Assembly: GCA_028698185.1 (NCBI GenBank)
Contig: JAQVDW010000046.1
Location: forward strand, 1 to 9,209
Origin: Erysipelotrichaceae bacterium
GTDB lineage: Bacteria; Bacillota_I; Bacilli_A; Erysipelotrichales; Coprobacillaceae
Direction of reading: 5' to 3'
Length of the DNA: 9,209 bases
This document shows positions 2,393-9,044 of the stretch, piece by piece. A model generated the notes under the pieces. That model did not search any database and was not told the DNA's origin. It saw only the letters and a list, made by a program, of their open reading frames with translations. How positions within the stretch are numbered: the stretch's first letter is position 1; each line of letters opens with the position of its first letter. The translations under genes were made by a program, and so were the position numbers.

Positions 2393-2519
2393 TTAATCGC
2401 AAACAGGAATTTTCACTTGACCTTAAAGCGGACTTTAACGATATAGTTAGTAAAGGAGGTATCAGACGCTATTGGAAATAGCCGGTCATAAAGGCGGGCG
2501 GCAGTGTCTGAAAATTCTA

Positions 2520-2773: not shown

Positions 2774-3556
2774 ATGGATAAATTGGAACAACTTAAAGAG
2801 CTGCTGCGATCATACCACAAGGTGGCGATCGCTTACAGCGGCGGAGTCGACTCGAATTTCCTTTTCGAGGTGGCCAAGGCGACCCTGGGTGCAGACAACG
2901 TCCTGGCGGTATTCTGCCAGGGGGCAATGATTGCCGAGTCGGAAAAAGCCGAGGCCTCGATGATGCTTAAAGGGGCCCGGCACCGGGTTGTTGATATCGA
3001 TGTCTTGGCGATTGAGCAGTTCAAACACAACGACAAGTTGCGCTGTTACCACTGCAAGTTCGCAATCATGTCAAAGGTCATTGCAGTAGCGAAAGAAGAA
3101 GGATTCGCCATCGTTCTGGATGGGCGCAACCACGATGATGGCAAAAGCTACCGGCCGGGCATCCAGGCCTGCGAAAAACTAGGCATCCTTTCTCCTCTGG
3201 CGGGCGTGGCTATGACTAAAGCTGAAATCCGGGCCTATTCGAAACAGCTGAAAATTGCCACTTACGACAAGCCGGCCAACGCCTGTCTGGCATCCCGCTT
3301 TGATTATGGGACTGAACTGGACTTGAGCAAACTCGAACGCGTGGCCCAAGGCGAAGAGATTATCAGGGAAATGGGAATCGCCTCGCTCCGTCTTCGGGTC
3401 GCCGGTGACCTGGCGCGGATTGAAGTCGAACCCCAGGATTTTGAAAAAATTATCGGTTCGAGCCAGCTGGTTGCCAAGCTAAAAAAGCTGGGCTTTACTT
3501 ATGTGACATTGGATCTGGCCGGACTTAAAAGTGGAGGATACGACCGTGAAAGTTAA
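2774..3556 (+). CDS. larE: LarE, ATP-dependent sulfur insertase for nickel-pincer nucleotide cofactor biosynthesis (PP-loop ATP pyrophosphatase family)
   Basis: SD AAAGGAG (2761-2767) lies 6 nt before ATG 2774, so the longer ORF from 2690 is probably not used. PP-loop SGGVDS at 2837-2854. Conserved ...PANACLASRFDYG... motif with Cys at 3284-3286, plus CYHC at 3044-3055. C-terminal ...LRLRV.GDLARIEV... and GF.YVTLDL.G..SG are typical of LarE. Confidence 0.92.
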   Translation: MDKLEQLKELLRSYHKVAIAYSGGVDSNFLFEVAKATLGADNVLAVFCQGAMIAESEKAEASMMLKGARHRVVDIDVLAIEQFKHNDKLRCYHCKFAIMSKVIAVAKEEGFAIVLDGRNHDDGKSYRPGIQACEKLGILSPLAGVAMTKAEIRAYSKQLKIATYDKPANACLASRFDYGTELDLSKLERVAQGEEIIREMGIASLRLRVAGDLARIEVEPQDFEKIIGSSQLVAKLKKLGFTYVTLDLAGLKSGGYDRES

Positions 3557-4289
3557 AGAAATATTGGAACAGGTGCAAAACCAGAAAATTTCAGTGGAAA
3601 AAGCGCAGCAGCTTCTGGAACAGCCGCTGGACTATGCGACGATTGATTTTGACCGCGAGAAGCGGACCGGAATCTCGGAAGTGATATATGGTGAAGGCAA
3701 GACCGCCCGGCAGATTGCCGGAATCATCCAGAACATGCTTGACCATGACTGCAAGACAATCCTGGCGACCCGGATTTCTCAGGAAAAAAGAGCCTACCTC
3801 GATCCGCTCTTCCCGGATTTCGAATACGATGAGCTGGCACGTACCTTCTTCTATCATCACAACAACATTCCCCACAACATCGGCAAGATTGCGGTTGTCT
3901 GCGCGGGCACATCGGATCTGCCGGTGGCCCGGGAAGCATACATCACTGCGAAGTTCCTGGGCAACGAGACAATCCTTATCAGCGATGTCGGGGTGGCGGG
4001 AATCCACCGCCTGTTCAACCGGCTCGATGATATCCGCGAAGCGAGCGTCGTCGTTGTCGTGGCGGGCATGGAAGGGGCCCTGGCATCGGTTGTCGGGGGG
4101 CTGACGGACAAACCGGTCATCGCCTGTCCGACCTCGGTGGGATATGGAGCCAATCTTGACGGTCTGGCCACCCTGCTTGCCATGCTCAACAGCTGCGCTA
4201 GCGGTATCGCTGTCGTCAACATCGACAACGGCTTCGGGGCCGGATACATGGCCCATTCGATCAACAATCTGAAAGGAAAAAAAACATGA
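3546..4289 (+). CDS. larB: LarB, NaAD carboxylase/hydrolase for nickel-pincer cofactor biosynthesis (PurE/AIR-carboxylase-like)
   Basis: Probable GTG start at 3546, 7 nt after SD GGAGGA (3533-3538). The ORF track begins at an earlier GTG, 3531. It overlaps the larE stop (3554-3556). N-terminal helix KEILEQV...IS.E.A..LL; PurE-like core IAVVCAGTSDLPVA.EA...LG...ISDVGVAGIHRL...VVVVVAGMEGALASVVGGL...PVIA.PTSVGYGA; conserved LNSC Cys codon at 4194-4196. Confidence 0.92.
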   Translation: MKVKEILEQVQNQKISVEKAQQLLEQPLDYATIDFDREKRTGISEVIYGEGKTARQIAGIIQNMLDHDCKTILATRISQEKRAYLDPLFPDFEYDELARTFFYHHNNIPHNIGKIAVVCAGTSDLPVAREAYITAKFLGNETILISDVGVAGIHRLFNRLDDIREASVVVVVAGMEGALASVVGGLTDKPVIACPTSVGYGANLDGLATLLAMLNSCASGIAVVNIDNGFGAGYMAHSINNLKGKKT

Positions 4290-5635
4290 AAGCACTGTAT
4301 TTTGACTGCTCGAGCGGCATCTCCGGCAACATGACAATCGCCGCATTGATGGAACTGCTTGACGATACGACATACCTGGAAAACGAACTCAAGAAAATCA
4401 ATGTCCCCGGGTACCATCTCGTAATCGACAAGCGCAACAAGAACGGCATTATGGCGACCCATGTGGAAGTGGTCATCGGCCATGAACACTCGCATGACCA
4501 CAACCACGAGCACGGCCATGAACACTCACATGACCACAGCCACGAGCACGGCCATGAACACTCACATGACCACAGCCACGAGCATGGCCATGAACATTCG
4601 CATGACCACAACCACGAGCACGGCCATGAACACTCGCATGACCACAACCACGAGCACGGCCACGATCAAGGACACCATCATGAGCATCGCAACCTGACGG
4701 CAATCAACAGCCTTATCGACGGGAGCAGCCTCGATAATCCGACCAAGGACCTGGCCAAGCGGATCTTCCTGCGGGTGGCCCGGGCCGAAAGCAAAGTGCA
4801 TGGCAAACCGCTCGAACAGGTGCATTTCCATGAGGTCGGCGCCATCGATTCGATCATCGATATCGTGGCCACCGCGATATTGATAAACAAGATCGCACCC
4901 GATGCCATCTATGCTTCAATTGTCAATGACGGTCACGGGTTTGTCAAATGTGCCCACGGACTGATGAGCGTTCCGGTTCCTGCGACAAGCGAGATTTTCG
5001 CTTCAAGCGACGTGGTCTGTCGCCAGATCGATATCGATGGCGAACTTGTGACTCCAACCGGTGCGGCCATAATCGCCGAACTGGCCAGCAGCTTTGGGGT
5101 GATGCCGGCGATGAAGGTGACCAAGATCGGCTGGGGCAGCGGCACCAAGGATCTTGCAATTCCCAATGTCCTGAAGGTGTCGATGGGGCAAATCACCAAG
5201 GACAAACCCAAGATAGCGGTCATGGAGAGCAATATCGATGACACGACCGGCGAGATTATGGGTTACACGATGGAGCGACTGTTCGAGGCGGGGGCGCTCG
5301 ATGTCTTTTTCACGCCGATCTTCATGAAAAAGAACCGGCCGGCCTACCGTCTTAGTGTTGCCTGCCAGGAGGAAAGCATGGCGGCACTCAAGGACATCAT
5401 TTTCGCCGAGACGACCACGATCGGAATCCGCTACCGCTATGAGGACCGTTTCGTTTTGGATCGGGAAATAATCACCAAAGAGACATCGCTAGGGCCGGTG
5501 CGCCTGAAGGTCACGCAGAATCGGGACATCCGCGACGAGTATTTCGAATTCGAGGATCTCAAACGGGTGGCCCAGGAAAACGGGATGGCTATCAAGGATG
5601 TCATCAGGATCTTGACAAAGGAATTTTCAAAATAA
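4286..5635 (+). CDS. larC: LarC, CTP-dependent nickel insertase (cyclometallase, DUF111 family), single fused polypeptide with an expanded His-rich tract
   Basis: An ATGA start/stop overlap links it to larB. SD AAGGA (4273-4277). Motifs: MKALYFDCSSGISGNM..AAL, HRNL..I..LI, AESKVHG.PLEQVHFHEVGAIDSIIDIV, GELVTPTGAAI, ESNIDD..GE..GY.ME.LFEAGALDVF.TPI.MKKNRP, ETTTIGIRY. It is uninterrupted from the N-terminal (LarC1-like) to the C-terminal (LarC2-like) region. Confidence 0.93.
   Translation: MKALYFDCSSGISGNMTIAALMELLDDTTYLENELKKINVPGYHLVIDKRNKNGIMATHVEVVIGHEHSHDHNHEHGHEHSHDHSHEHGHEHSHDHSHEHGHEHSHDHNHEHGHEHSHDHNHEHGHDQGHHHEHRNLTAINSLIDGSSLDNPTKDLAKRIFLRVARAESKVHGKPLEQVHFHEVGAIDSIIDIVATAILINKIAPDAIYASIVNDGHGFVKCAHGLMSVPVPATSEIFASSDVVCRQIDIDGELVTPTGAAIIAELASSFGVMPAMKVTKIGWGSGTKDLAIPNVLKVSMGQITKDKPKIAVMESNIDDTTGEIMGYTMERLFEAGALDVFFTPIFMKKNRPAYRLSVACQEESMAALKDIIFAETTTIGIRYRYEDRFVLDREIITKETSLGPVRLKVTQNRDIRDEYFEFEDLKRVAQENGMAIKDVIRILTKEFSK
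4481..4660 (+). repeat. Five tandem copies of a 36-bp in-frame unit encoding HEHSHD(N/S)HEHG inside larC
   Basis: Units are 4481-4516, 4517-4552, 4553-4588, 4589-4624 and 4625-4660. Units 1 and 5 are identical. Unit 4 differs from unit 1 by 1 nt, unit 3 from unit 2 by 1 nt, and unit 2 from unit 1 by 2 nt. A degenerate His-rich tail HDQGHHHEH follows, ending at 4687. Confidence 0.97.
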
Positions 5636-5675
5636 GAAAATCCCGTGTGTCCCTTTACCGTACAGTCGACTTTAA

Positions 5676-5684
5676 TGGTACAAT
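5676..5684 (+). promoter_or_regulatory. Candidate extended -10 element (TGgTACAAT) in the larC/AKR-B gap
   Basis: TG 5676-5677 and TACAAT 5679-5684. The -35 is poor (TTTACC 5654-5659 at 19-nt spacing). The predicted start site would sit only a few nt before SD AAAGGAG (5694-5700), so function is uncertain. Confidence 0.25.
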
Positions 5685-5707
5685 AGGTTTTGTAAAGGAG
5701 TGATTCT

Positions 5708-6811
5708 ATGTTATCAGATTCGAAATTCGGTTTTGGATTGATGCGCCTGCCTAAGGACGCAGAAAATAATATTGACATCGACCAGGTAAAGGCCATGGTT
5801 GATGGATTCATGGCCAGCGGTTTCAACTATTTCGATACCGCCTATGTATACAACGGGTCGGAAGAGGCGATGAAGGCGGCGCTGGTCGATCGCTATCCCC
5901 GTGAGAGCTACACCATCGCCAACAAGATCCACAAAATGGCTTTAAAAACCAAGGAGCAGGTGGCTGAAGTTTTCAACGAGTCACTTAGACGCTGTGGCGT
6001 CGACTATTTCGACTTCTACCTGATCCATGCCATCAACCGGAAGCTGTATGGCGAATATCAGGAATTTGGCTGTTTCGAGTATTGCCAGGAGCAAAAAGAG
6101 GCCGGGAAGATCCGCTATCTTGGCTTCTCGTTCCATGACGATGCCGACTTGCTCGACCAGGTTCTTACCGAACATCCCGAGATCGACTTCGTCCAGCTCC
6201 AGCTCAACTATCTCGATTGGGACAGCGGGGTCATCCAGGCTCGCAATAACTACGAAGTGGCCCGGCGACACAACAAGCCGATCGTGGTCATGGAGCCCAT
6301 CAAGGGCGGCAACCTGGCGGTACTGCCCGACCATATCGAAAAAATCTTCAAGGACTATAATCCTGATGCCTCAATGGCTTCCTGGGCATTGCGTTATGTC
6401 GGATCGCTCGAAGGGGTGATGACCATCCTTTCGGGAATGTCGACGCCGGGGCAAATGGCCGACAATCTGGCAACGATGAAGGATTTCCAGCCGATAAACA
6501 GCCAGGAGGCAAGCCTGATTGCCAAGATCACCAAGGAATATCTGGCATTGAAGACAATCGACTGCACTGCCTGTCGCTATTGTGTCGCCGGCTGTCCTAA
6601 GAACATCCTGATTCCCGACCTGTTTGCCGCCTATAACGACCAGATGGCCTATGGCAAGACAAGCCGGCCTAAGACATTCTACCTCGAGCATACCGGCGAG
6701 GGCCATGGCCTGGCGAGTGAATGCATCGCCTGTGGCAAGTGCGAACATGTCTGCCCGCAACACCTGCCAATCATCGACTTGCTCAAAAAGGTCGCTGCCA
6801 CATTCGAATAG
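5708..6811 (+). CDS. Aldo/keto reductase fused to a C-terminal dicluster 4Fe-4S ferredoxin-like domain (COG1453-type), AKR-B
   Basis: SD AAAGGAG lies 7 nt before ATG 5708. AKR tetrad candidates: YFDTAYVY (D, Y), IANK (K), YLIHA (H). Two canonical CxxCxxCxxxCP motifs, CTACRYCVAGCP and CIACGKCEHVCP (nt 6563-6757). It sits 72 nt after larC with no intervening terminator. Stop is TAG 6809-6811. Confidence 0.9.
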   Translation: MLSDSKFGFGLMRLPKDAENNIDIDQVKAMVDGFMASGFNYFDTAYVYNGSEEAMKAALVDRYPRESYTIANKIHKMALKTKEQVAEVFNESLRRCGVDYFDFYLIHAINRKLYGEYQEFGCFEYCQEQKEAGKIRYLGFSFHDDADLLDQVLTEHPEIDFVQLQLNYLDWDSGVIQARNNYEVARRHNKPIVVMEPIKGGNLAVLPDHIEKIFKDYNPDASMASWALRYVGSLEGVMTILSGMSTPGQMADNLATMKDFQPINSQEASLIAKITKEYLALKTIDCTACRYCVAGCPKNILIPDLFAAYNDQMAYGKTSRPKTFYLEHTGEGHGLASECIACGKCEHVCPQHLPIIDLLKKVAATFE

Positions 6812-6813
6812 CT

Positions 6814-6837
6814 AAGACGCCCAGGCGTCTTTTTTTT
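6814..6837 (+). terminator. Rho-independent terminator ending the larEBC/AKR-B transcription unit
   Basis: GC-rich hairpin aagacgc-ccag-gcgtctt (6814-6831), starting 3 nt after the stop and running into a T8 tract (6830-6837). Confidence 0.85.
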
Positions 6838-6842
6838 AATGT

Positions 6843-6871: not shown

Positions 6872-6916
6872 TGAGATATGGAAGGTTGCAAGACAAAAAA
6901 TGAAAGGGTGGGGAAG

Positions 6917-7780
6917 ATGAATCTTGATGATTACCGTTATCCCAAAGCAGGGAAAGTGAATCTGCGCGAAATTTCCACCGAACCGGAAACCGAATGTGAC
7001 AAGGAAGAATGCATGAGACGGCTCGAAAGCAACATCCTGGAAATCGTGGAATACCAGGAAAAACTGTATGCGGCAAAAAGGGAGGGGCTGATCATCGTCC
7101 TGCAGGCGATGGATGCCGGGGGCAAGGACAGCACAATCAAGAAGGTAACTTCCGGTATCAATCCAGCGGGGATCGATATCGCCGATTTCAAGAAACCAAA
7201 CTCCGGTGACCTCGAACATGACTTTTTGTGGCGGGTGAACAAGATGACGCCCGTAAGAGGCAAAATTGCCATCTACAACCGCTCATATTACGAGGATGTC
7301 CTCGCGGTGCAGGTCCACAATCTCCATCTAGGATTCAAGATGATGCCCCGCGTGATCGCCAATCCCGAATTCTTTGAGCGCCGCCAAAGGGATATCATCC
7401 ATTTCGAACAGTATCTGTTCGACGAAAGCTACCGGATTGTCAAGATTTTTCTCCATATCTCCAAGGATGAACAAAAACGCCGCTTCTACGAAAGGCTTGA
7501 GGATCCTGACAAGAACTGGAAATTCGATCCCGGCGATCTGGTCGACCGTGAAAATTGGGACAAGTATCAGGACATTTATGAGGACATCATCACCAATACG
7601 GCCACCAAGAACGCCCCCTGGTACGTCATTCCCGCTGACAAGAAATGGTATTCGCGTTTTGTCGTATCCCAGATCATCCTGGACACTTTGAAAATGATGG
7701 ATCCTCAGTATCCGATCCTCGACGAGGAAGAGCTGGAGAAGTTCACCATGTACAAGCGGCTCCTTGACAATGAGAAATAG
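6917..7780 (+). CDS. ppk2: Polyphosphate kinase 2 family protein (polyphosphate:nucleotide phosphotransferase), single-domain
   Basis: Motifs: LIIVLQAMDAGGKDSTIKKV (Walker A-like), NP.G....FK.P...E..HDFLWR, G.IAIYNRSYYEDVL, ...ISK.EQ..RF..R...P.K.WKF...D...R..W..Y...YE......T....APWYVIPAD.KW. I chose ATG 6917 (purine-rich GGGTGGGGAAG just upstream) because the ORF-track start 6878 sits about 7 nt from the predicted -10. Stop is TAG 7778-7780. Confidence 0.88.
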   Translation: MNLDDYRYPKAGKVNLREISTEPETECDKEECMRRLESNILEIVEYQEKLYAAKREGLIIVLQAMDAGGKDSTIKKVTSGINPAGIDIADFKKPNSGDLEHDFLWRVNKMTPVRGKIAIYNRSYYEDVLAVQVHNLHLGFKMMPRVIANPEFFERRQRDIIHFEQYLFDESYRIVKIFLHISKDEQKRRFYERLEDPDKNWKFDPGDLVDRENWDKYQDIYEDIITNTATKNAPWYVIPADKKWYSRFVVSQIILDTLKMMDPQYPILDEEELEKFTMYKRLLDNEK

Positions 7781-7818
7781 GCTGTGACCTTCAAATAAAA
7801 GCAAAAGAGGAATTGAAG

Positions 7819-8442
7819 ATGAGAAAGTTGAAAAAATTATTAATCCTGGTTCTGATTGCCGGGCTGACTTTTGGCTGTGGCGCCAGCGCGAAACCTGATG
7901 ACGTGGTCAAGGATTTCTTTGAAGCGGCGAAGACATTCGATATGGAAGGGATGGTCGCGACCATCGTGCCGGAAAATTCGGCGGCGGCGGCCTATACCAA
8001 GGAAATCTTCTCCGATGAGGAATTCGAAGACTATCCTGAGGAGTTTTTGGCCTATCTTGAAGAAAACGCCGGCAAGATCAACTATGAGATAACCTCGAGT
8101 GAAGTTGACGGCGACATGGCTACAGTCACCGTCGATGTCAGCTATATCGACAGCTATGTGCTGCTTGAAGATGTTTTTAGCGAATACATGACTCAGGCGT
8201 TTACCATGGCTTTTAGCACCCAGGATGTCTTAGACGAAGATTACGACAAGCTCTTGAGCGACATCTTCCTTGACAAGATGACCAATGGCGAAGACACTTT
8301 CAAGGATGCGACTTTGGAAATCCCTTGCGAAAAAATCGACGGCAAGTGGTACATCAAGGATGTCAGCGAGGAAATGATGGATGTGTTCCTGTCAGGTTTC
8401 ATTGCGGCGGCGGCGACATTCGAGTCACAGTTCAACCAATAG
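7819..8442 (+). CDS. Putative secreted lipoprotein, DUF4878/NTF2-like fold suspected
   Basis: SD AGAGGA (7806-7811) lies 7 nt before ATG 7819; the ORF track starts at TTG 7813. N-terminus MRKLKKLLILVLIAGLTFGC has a basic n-region, a hydrophobic core and a lipobox-like TFGC, followed by GASAKPDD. The acidic mature domain with DVVKDFFEA... and ...KIDGKWYI resembles DUF4878-type lipoproteins. The family call is tentative. Confidence 0.7.
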   Translation: MRKLKKLLILVLIAGLTFGCGASAKPDDVVKDFFEAAKTFDMEGMVATIVPENSAAAAYTKEIFSDEEFEDYPEEFLAYLEENAGKINYEITSSEVDGDMATVTVDVSYIDSYVLLEDVFSEYMTQAFTMAFSTQDVLDEDYDKLLSDIFLDKMTNGEDTFKDATLEIPCEKIDGKWYIKDVSEEMMDVFLSGFIAAAATFESQFNQ

Positions 8443-8531: not shown

Positions 8532-9044
8532 ATGACTAAAACATTAATTGCCTATTTTTCAAGAACCGGGGAAAATTTTGTCCAGGGAACCATCAAGGGA
8601 CTGGAAGTGGGGAACACCGAGATTGTCGCCAGAAAGATCCAGGAATTCACCGGTGGCGATTTGTTCAAGATTGATCCCGTTGTCCCGTATGATGACGATT
8701 ATGATATCTGCTCCAACCAGGCCCGGCAGGATTTCCAGAACCAGGCCCGACCCGAATTCAAGAATCCCCCGGCCACCCTCAAGGAATACGATACAATCTA
8801 TCTGCTTTTCCCAAATTACTGGAACACGATGCCGATGCATGTCTGGACGTTTTTGGAAAGATACGATTTTTCAAACAAGACCATCAAGCCGCTGGTGACC
8901 CATATGGGCAGCCGCTTTGGAACCGCGGAGATCGACATCGCCAACGTTTGCAAAGGAGCCCGGGTGCTCAAAGGCCTCGCTGTCCTAGGCGATCTGGCCA
9001 ACGATTCCGATGCCAAGATCAAAAGCTGGGTCGAACTCAATTGA
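8532..9044 (+). CDS. Flavodoxin-family protein (Flavodoxin_4-like)
   Basis: SD GGAGGG (8521-8526) lies 5 nt before the ATG. KTLIAYFSRTGENF...GNTE..A..I...TGGDLF.I.P...Y..DY....D.....ARP........EYDTIYL.FPNYW...PM.V.TFLE.YDFS.KTI.P..TH.GS is the typical pattern of this FMN-binding family. Stop is TGA 9042-9044. Confidence 0.87.
   Translation: MTKTLIAYFSRTGENFVQGTIKGLEVGNTEIVARKIQEFTGGDLFKIDPVVPYDDDYDICSNQARQDFQNQARPEFKNPPATLKEYDTIYLLFPNYWNTMPMHVWTFLERYDFSNKTIKPLVTHMGSRFGTAEIDIANVCKGARVLKGLAVLGDLANDSDAKIKSWVELN

Follow-up and report, generated by a model that had tools for sequence, protein, structure and literature searches.

Iron-sulfur aldo-keto reductases as candidate clients of a nickel-pincer cofactor operon with no LarA gene nearby in a gut Erysipelotrichaceae bacterium

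The 9,209-nt contig JAQVDW010000046.1 (assembly GCA_028698185.1, a gut Erysipelotrichaceae bacterium), analyzed over its whole length and referred to below as the window, carries the nickel-pincer cofactor synthesis genes larE, larB, and larC between two genes for aldo-keto reductases (AKRs) with a C-terminal iron-sulfur domain, AKR-A upstream and AKR-B downstream. The window is proposed to be a module for the nickel-pincer nucleotide (NPN) or its mononucleotide form (NPMN) that lacks LarA, both in the window and over 10 kb in its relatives, whose clients would be the flanking Fe-S AKRs, and in which lar and AKR-B would be co-regulated; this overall picture is given a probability of about 0.6. 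The use of a nickel-pincer cofactor by an AKR-fold enzyme is already published for NphT, and the idea is therefore not new in kind. New here are the Fe-S-fused variant, its very wide distribution, the DUF3842 protein, and a shared MerR-type promoter, all of which are predictions.

NphT from Alicyclobacillus cellulosilyticus is an NPMN-dependent hydride transferase of the AKR superfamily, with a structure at 1.3 Å (PDB 9YEB; Semersky et al., Nat Chem 2026, PMC13524815). The enzyme holds NPMN covalently (+450 Da) via Lys200, uses His144 as nickel ligand, and retains the AKR tetrad; its chemistry is intermolecular hydride transfer, and redox-neutral hydride shuttling was shown (PMC13524815). Chain numbering in 9YEB equals the numbering of the paper plus 3. 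The same study reports 427 co-occurrences of PF00248 AKRs with lar genes, the His and Lys pair in 34% of lar-adjacent AKRs and the His only in 40%, with no His-only member tested, and the in vitro synthesis of NPMN from LarB, LarE, and LarC alone; its main text makes no mention of iron-sulfur, ferredoxin, or fusion proteins. An earlier sequence-only reading of the window had LarA-family enzymes as the sole characterized NPN users, a view that NphT has overtaken. Around 15% of analyzed genomes make the nickel-pincer cofactor yet lack LarA (PMC11796402). Nothing functional was found in the literature on COG1453 and Fe-S-fused AKRs.

AKR-A (1385-2392, + strand; 335 aa; PF00248 and Fer4), a type-A Fe-S AKR whose sequence is identical to that of an NCBI protein from an Erysipelotrichaceae metagenome-assembled genome, has 9yeb_A as its best PDB sequence match, both as a single sequence (E 4.4e-20, 75 bits; runner-up 59 bits) and as a family profile of 14 members (110.6 bits, E 7.2e-31; runner-up 85.2 bits). 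The AKR-A tetrad D47/Y52/K75/H106 aligns, with identical numbering, with that of NphT. Thr139 and His141 (GLTNHS) align on NphT Thr142 and the nickel ligand His144 (GITGHG), and Met187-Lys188 (IAMKSLAGG) align on Ile199 and the tether Lys200 (TIKAIARG). These residues, the tetrad included, are all invariant among 14 aligned homologues, and in the 80 species-level orthologue loci surveyed the TxH motif is present in 79 and MKxxxGG in all. Canonical AKRs such as AKR11C1 and perakine reductase share the fold and the tetrad with both window AKRs but have Ile (AKR11C1) or Ala (perakine reductase) in the His column and Gly or Ala in the AKR-A Lys column, and possess neither an Fe-S domain nor a link to lar genes. 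Unlike NphT, AKR-A matches the Pfam AKR profile only up to position 201 of 291, and both window AKRs have an additional C-terminal 2x[4Fe-4S] domain. In AKR-A this comprises two CxxCxxCxxxCP motifs (C256/259/262/266 and C304/307/310/314), which are invariant in the aligned homologues, and the structure model (predicted local distance difference test, pLDDT, 85.5) consists of an AKR barrel followed by a helical Cys-rich domain. At 64-72% identity, AKR-A orthologues are present in no fewer than 597 GTDB species, among them Faecalibacterium prausnitzii, Clostridium drakei, Enterocloster, and Faecalibacillus. Judged by sequence, AKR-A carries the complete published NphT signature and is a stronger NphT-like candidate than AKR-B, since both the nickel-ligand His and the tether Lys are present and NphT is the top PDB match; it is probably an NPN enzyme, and of the two AKRs the one for which this is put with some assurance.

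AKR-B (5708-6811, +; 367 aa; PF00248 and a 4Fe-4S dicluster), a type-B Fe-S AKR, is a distant paralog of AKR-A (21% identity, E 9e-14), as had been proposed, and the D/Y/K/H tetrads described earlier as intact in both enzymes are indeed invariant in aligned homologues (D43/Y48/K73/H107 in AKR-B). The best PDB profile match is AKR11C1 (E 8e-13), aligned over the full AKR domain, and 9yeb is a weak match (E 1e-4). His143 (GFSFHD) stands in the NphT His144 column, with SxH in 80/80 homologue loci, and the NphT Lys200 column is occupied by Glu196, so that the tether lysine is missing; three residues further on, at Lys199 of AKR-B itself, the homologue loci have Lys in 62/80 and Arg in 18/80. The C-terminal domain has the motif CxxCxxCxxxCP at 286-297 and 339-350 (C286/289/292/296 and C339/342/345/349, invariant in aligned homologues), and the structure model (pLDDT 88.8) again shows an AKR barrel and then a helical Cys-rich domain. 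Pfam Fer4_9 and Fer4_17 matches fall in the C-terminal domains of the window AKRs. A strict regular expression for two CxxCxxCxxxCP motifs finds 80/80 AKR-B loci versus 2/80 AKR-A loci, a difference that is not taken as absence of the clusters. Foldseek comparison of both models with a PDB set to 2026-04-08, which does not contain 9YEB, gave probability 1.00 to AKRs, with canonical AKRs at the top. By these features AKR-B is placed in the His-only class of PMC13524815 and is more like the NADPH-type AKR11C1, and the chance that it is an NPN enzyme is put at slightly under even. The sequence-only reading had singled out AKR-B as a candidate new NPN user; an AKR-fold user beside larEBC without LarA proved right in kind, given NphT, but by the published criteria AKR-A, with both His and Lys, is the better candidate of the two. 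In the 2.88-Mb relative L007, the AKR-B gene (9840-10942) is split by a one-base deletion (GGCC to GGC), which is either genuine or an artifact of long-read assembly.

The cofactor genes larE (2774-3556), larB (3546-4289), and larC (4286-5635), all on the + strand, are intact, and their identities are at curated equivalog level. LarE scores 274 bits on TIGR00268 (curated cut-off 150); LarB, the predicted nicotinic acid adenine dinucleotide carboxylase/hydrolase, 296 bits on NF033503 (cut-off 175); and LarC, a predicted fused LarC1+LarC2 nickel cyclometallase, 464 bits on PF01969, 208 bits on the LarC1 model TIGR00299 (cut-off 90), and 144 bits on the LarC2 model NF052512 (cut-off 50). LarE, with a PP-loop SGGVDS at residues 22-27 (read from the translation), is predicted to insert sulfur in an ATP-dependent reaction and to be of the CXXC-C [4Fe-4S] type, and its C91-x-x-C94 motif and C171 are the counterpart of C92/C95/C172 in the catalytic [4Fe-4S] motif of Thermotoga maritima LarE (LarE_Tm), which agrees with the Fe-S type suggested earlier. 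LarE_Tm works catalytically with a cysteine desulfurase as the only sulfur donor (PMC9283937). The layout of the transcription unit given in the sequence-only reading also stands. larB and larC overlap by ATGA at 4286-4289; larE and larB overlap by 11 nt if larB starts at GTG 3546, the start called in relatives, the first in-frame start being GTG 3531; the gap between larC and AKR-B is 72 nt (5636-5707) and has no terminator-like site; and the larEBC/AKR-B unit is closed by an intrinsic terminator at 6814-6839 (+; 7-bp stem, 4-nt loop, T8 run), with the hairpin at 6814-6831 followed by the T-run.

The Lactiplantibacillus plantarum lar operon likewise has LarB, LarC, and LarE equivalogs, but the window differs from it in lacking larA, larD, larR, and larMNQO, in having LarC as one fused protein with a long His-rich repeat, and in an extra, undescribed neighbor, DUF3842. 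The repeat, detected with Tandem Repeats Finder, is 36 nt x 5.2 at 4477-4662 within larC and encodes the His-rich stretch HEHGHEHSHDHS; the LarC proteins of relatives vary in length between 444 and 463 aa, and a number of public short-read contigs (L001-L005) break at this repeat. No Pfam or NCBIfam match to LarA/DUF2088 (PF09861), LarD, LarR, or a Ni transporter was obtained in the 10 genes and 10 shadow open reading frames (ORFs) of the window, in line with the earlier statement that all four are missing. The precomputed Pfam families of the neighbors also include none of these within 10 kb on either side in three close relatives (L006, L007, and L008; 85-96% identical to the window). The arrangement, in the window and in these relatives, of larB, larC, and larE neighbors with no LarA nearby is shared with NphT. 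The LarA family shares the cofactor and the genes for its synthesis, and the attachment by Lys thioamide and His-Ni seen in LarA is apparently mimicked by AKR-A; the family differs in having a fold unrelated to that of AKRs and no Fe-S domain, and catalyzes 2-hydroxyacid racemization or epimerization.

Two promoters of MerR-type layout are predicted on the + strand. P1 (2417-2447), 5′ of a DUF3842 remnant and larEBC, has a -35 element TTGACC (2417-2422), a dyad TTAAAG-CGGA-CTTTAA (2423-2438), and a -10 element TATAGT (2442-2447) with a 19-nt spacer, and is invariant in L006-L008. P2 (5654-5684), in the larC/AKR-B gap, has a -35 element TTTACC (5654-5659), a dyad GTACAG-TCGA-CTTTAA (5660-5675), and a TG-extended -10 element TACAAT (5679-5684), again with a 19-nt spacer; it is conserved in L006-L008, and its dyad is perfect in L006. 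The two are identical at 23/32 nt over 2416-2447 and 5653-5684, spans that each start one base 5′ of the -35 element. Promoters activated by the MerR family are distinguished by an elongated spacer of 19-20 nt in which a quasi-palindrome is nested (PMC5001606). The 19-nt spacer and nested dyad are a likeness to the CueR, ZntR, and AdhR/NmlR types. The window system differs from these in that no MerR gene was found near any P1/P2-type site, with no MerR domain in the window genes and shadow ORFs or in the annotated neighbors of L171, L177, and L096, and the regulator may be encoded elsewhere. The dyad may also resemble the AdhR/NmlR (aldehyde-sensing) box.

The composite -35/dyad/-10 pattern gave 9 independent matches in 2.25 Mb, whereas 40 block shuffles averaged 0.5 matches and never exceeded 2, and each of the 9 has the 19-nt spacer. 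The sites lie 5′ of the Thomasclavelia lar operon (L171:8134), of an operon of DUF362, AKR, and lar genes (L096:8613), of a type-B AKR-DUF3842 pair (L177:7822), of stand-alone AKR-A orthologues (L023:9908; Longibaculum muris, L027:9284 and 9950; C. drakei, L054:9833), and of a DUF362 gene beside an AKR-B homologue (L149:1180, - strand), with a further match at L094:464 (- strand). The DUF362 genes under this promoter encode ~289 aa (L096:8662-9528, which opens the AKR-lar operon, and L149:256-1125, - strand), and the same promoter type also occurs 5′ of a phosphotransferase system (PTS)-IIB-like ORF in other lineages. The dyad core alone, sought in the 250 nt 5′ of 160 AKR homologues, is not enriched (3 matches versus ~2.3 expected), and specificity lies solely in the composite pattern. 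A degenerate dyad 5′ of the LigB-type gene (~434) was dropped, as it is not conserved in relatives. The sequence-only reading had seen a weak promoter-like element in the larC/AKR-B gap and supposed that it could uncouple AKR-B from lar; the promoter is present, as P2, but as a near-copy of P1, the lar promoter/operator, it would put lar and AKR-B under the same predicted regulator, which argues for co-regulation and not for uncoupling.

The 380-nt gap between AKR-A and larE also contains a hairpin with a U-run (2670-2739, +; fold -25.7 kcal/mol), with ACAUGAAGUA invariant on its 5′ side. It is conserved in L006-L008 and in L096 (12350-12420), with compensatory changes at 4 outer-stem pairs, and has no Rfam match. 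There is no space for a good promoter between the hairpin and larE, so larE is probably transcribed by read-through from P1, and the hairpin would then be a terminator or attenuator; the case for this is thin, being drawn from 5 sequences, 4 of them close relatives, with a z-score of -1.1. The 10-mer ACATGAAGTA of this hairpin is also found in L039, in the T-box leader of an aminoacyl-tRNA synthetase, and was counted as chance. An Rfam scan of the whole window (E up to 1) revealed no known riboswitch in the 380-nt gap, and a CRISPR-DR match in the window was dismissed as chance.

The DUF3842 remnant (2520-2668, +), defined by alignment with the intact L006 and L008 genes, is a pseudogene that has suffered a TGC to TGA nonsense change at 2571-2573 and has lost 253 bp internally, between 2612 and 2613. 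All three close relatives have an intact copy (126-133 aa) between AKR-A and larE (L006:6575-6976, L007:6417-6797, and L008:6524-6922), the L006 copy matching PF12953 with 152 bits. Farther afield, DUF3842 is found between larE and cbiMQO-larB-larC in the Thomasclavelia lar cluster. It follows a type-A AKR at a distance of 3 nt in Tannockella kyphosi (L169) and a type-B AKR at the same distance in L177; in Faecalispora (L055) it lies close to larB and AKR-A, and in L174 a type-B AKR is 5 kb away; in L173 neither lar nor an Fe-S AKR is beside it. The N-terminus, VVDGQGGGIG, bears a weak resemblance to Rossmann dinucleotide-binding loops (E ~0.3), and no functional account of DUF3842 was found in the literature. 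The linkage of DUF3842 both to lar and to Fe-S AKRs supports the connection between these two, and suggests that DUF3842 is an accessory of the nickel-pincer system not described before.

Searches with AKR-A and AKR-B returned at least 8000 matches each, and the neighborhood survey covered, besides the 80 AKR-A orthologue loci, 80 metagenomic AKR-B-homologue loci. lar genes lie within 10 kb in 2/80 AKR-A loci (L039 and L055; expected ~0.4-0.6) and in 4/80 AKR-B-homologue loci, which represent 2 independent arrangements (expected ~0.3-0.45). With expectations derived from genome size, the Poisson P for both sets combined is ~0.005-0.02, and the enrichment is real and modest. More telling than these counts is the content of L096/097, which is the window gene set in a different order: DUF362, type-B AKR, a third Fe-S AKR (His/Lys), DUF3842, larE, larB, larC1/C2, a methyltransferase, and a Nik/Opp-type ATP-binding cassette (ABC) transporter. 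The other orders are type-B AKR, larB, larC, larE in L140/145; larB, larC, AKR-A, with overlapping genes, in L039; and a nik-like ABC transporter, larB, DUF3842, AKR-A in L055. Fe-S AKRs and lar genes thus combine in four independent gene orders. lar clusters such as L171/172 have no AKR within 9 kb, and unbiased clustering of the neighbors of the 80 AKR-A orthologues gave no conserved partner, with enolase/gpmI synteny in some Lachnospiraceae only.

The third kind of Fe-S AKR (L096:10820-11881, 353 aa), one of four AKR genes in that locus, adjoins DUF3842-larEBC and has the NphT His/Lys motif (GLSSHS, VMKAFCGG); its tetrad is altered, the Tyr and the Lys each being replaced by His. Genes for an iron-type alcohol dehydrogenase and a class-I methyltransferase recur beside type-A and type-B AKRs (L055:8565-9674, - strand; L178:4833-5999; L096:15146-15874; L178:7128-7766), which hints at an alcohol or aldehyde substrate context.

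In the mechanism proposed for the window, LarB, the [4Fe-4S]-type LarE, and LarC would make NPMN, which AKR-A would bind as NphT does, with Lys188 as the thioamide tether and His141 on the nickel, and the tetrad D47/Y52/K75/H106 would carry proton-coupled hydride transfer to C4 of the pincer. Should AKR-B be a user as well, it may bind the cofactor non-covalently, via Lys199, or in a dinucleotide form (NPAD). The ferredoxin-like 2x[4Fe-4S] domain would connect the nickel site to one-electron carriers (ferredoxin or flavodoxin), and such wiring would permit net reduction or oxidation of carbonyl/alcohol substrates, beyond the redox-neutral shuttling of NphT. P1 and P2 would let a single regulator induce AKR-B along with cofactor synthesis. 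What the analysis establishes directly is who the genes are, their motifs, the nearest solved relatives, the recurring gene sets, and the duplicated promoter. Cofactor binding by AKR-A and AKR-B, the role of the Fe-S domain, and the identity and signal of the regulator are the parts of this scheme that we infer.

The reading of the flanking Fe-S AKRs as clients of the cofactor is supported by the NphT precedent, with NphT as the best solved relative of AKR-A and His141/Lys188 conserved; by the invariance of AKR-B His143 where canonical AKRs have Ala or Ile; and by the recurring gene sets, the bridging position of DUF3842, the likeness of P1 and P2, and the absence of LarA within 10 kb in relatives. 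Several observations weigh on the other side. lar adjacency is rare, and most members of the Fe-S AKR family stand alone with no conserved neighbor. AKR-B has no tether lysine, has a full-length AKR domain, and has the NADPH-dependent AKR11C1 as its nearest solved relative; an intact tetrad fits NAD(P)H chemistry equally well; and the His alone may not be diagnostic, His-only AKRs making up 40% of candidates with none tested (PMC13524815). The DUF3842 pseudogene and the AKR-B frameshift in L007 could also mean that the module is decaying. Hosts of the window type are anaerobic gut Firmicutes, in which they differ from the source of NphT.

The alternative that survives best, though it is considered doubtful, is that AKR-A alone is an NPN enzyme and AKR-B a NAD(P)H- or ferredoxin-dependent aldehyde reductase that owes its lar-type promoter solely to membership, with lar, in a stress regulon, for example one for carbonyl/aldehyde stress under an AdhR/NmlR-like MerR regulator. 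The Glu at the Lys200 position of AKR-B, its complete AKR C-terminal region, and the weakness of its match to 9yeb all fit this division of roles, as does the control of aldehyde-detoxifying dehydrogenases by Gram-positive AdhR/NmlR-type MerR regulators (PMC5001606). It is, however, AKR-B and not AKR-A that lies inside the lar transcription unit, and type-B AKRs adjoin lar in L096 and L140 and DUF3842 in L177. The invariance of AKR-B His143 also speaks against it, as does the share of His-only AKRs among lar-adjacent candidates (PMC13524815).

The main rival to a client role for either enzyme is that the two Fe-S AKRs are common carbonyl reductases, dependent on NAD(P)H or linked to ferredoxin, that their synteny with lar is lineage-specific, and that NPN is used by a protein from another part of the genome (a LarA homologue, an enzyme of the ornithine-cyclodeaminase type, or something else). 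The intact catalytic tetrads are what such enzymes would have, AKR11C1 as nearest solved relative of AKR-B binds NAD(P), and adjacency to lar in 2-5% of homologue loci, with no conserved neighbor of AKR-A orthologues, is compatible with chance, which is raised by the several AKR paralogues per clostridial genome (four AKR genes in L096). This explanation nevertheless appears unlikely, as it does not account for the invariant AKR-A His and Lys, which correspond to the NphT cofactor ligands and form a motif that canonical AKRs lack (PMC13524815), or for the lead of 25 bits that NphT holds among AKR-A PDB matches, the four independent lar and AKR gene orders with DUF3842 tied to both, and the promoter/operator common to lar and AKR genes. 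That AKR-B is instead a biosynthesis accessory, keeping the LarE [4Fe-4S] cluster reduced, as the sequence-only reading had offered as its second option, or processing a pathway intermediate, is very improbable: LarE is of the CXXC-C [4Fe-4S] type and AKR-B, with two [4Fe-4S] motifs, lies in the lar transcription unit, but no specific support for a helper was found; a CXXC-C LarE requires a sulfur donor and not a dedicated reductase (LarE_Tm is catalytic with just cysteine desulfurase; PMC9283937), LarB, LarE, and LarC suffice for NPMN in vitro (PMC13524815), the L171/172 lar clusters have no AKR within 9 kb, and electron delivery would not need an intact AKR active site.

All 10 real genes of the window are on the + strand. 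Upstream of the module are the 3′ end of leuS (15-218) and a LigB/4,5-DOPA-extradiol-dioxygenase-type gene (527-1330; NF007914, 242 bits), which ends 54 nt 5′ of AKR-A and occupies the same place in 3/3 close relatives, its own upstream region not being conserved. A GC-rich hairpin of ~32 nt with a T-run follows the AKR-A stop codon in L006 (6415-6455) and L008 and is missing from the window (2393-2415), so LigB/AKR-A transcription may run into the lar promoter region. Downstream of AKR-B are genes for PPK2 (6878-7780), a lipoprotein-like ORF (7813-8442), and a flavodoxin (8532-9044).

If the Fe-S AKRs bind the cofactor, the known nickel-pincer chemistry would come to include reactions coupled with electron carriers in addition to redox-neutral hydride shuttling, and a family that is 64-72% identical in hundreds of gut Firmicute species, Faecalibacterium, Enterocloster, and Thomasclavelia among them, would turn out to need nickel. 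Lys188, His141, the partner DUF3842, and the shared promoter/operator provide experimental handles, the last for tracing the regulator and its signal. A bolder and quite tentative extension, for which the odds are clearly below even, is that type-A and type-B Fe-S AKRs form a large unrecognized nickel-pincer class (no fewer than 597 gut and anaerobic Firmicute species for type A alone) and are the missing clients of many orphan larBCE clusters. Two [4Fe-4S] clusters would link the nickel site with ferredoxin or flavodoxin, with NPN as a two-electron/one-electron converter; the small Rossmann-like DUF3842 would be an NPN carrier or insertase; and a dedicated MerR-type switch would control the system, possibly in response to aldehyde stress or nickel.

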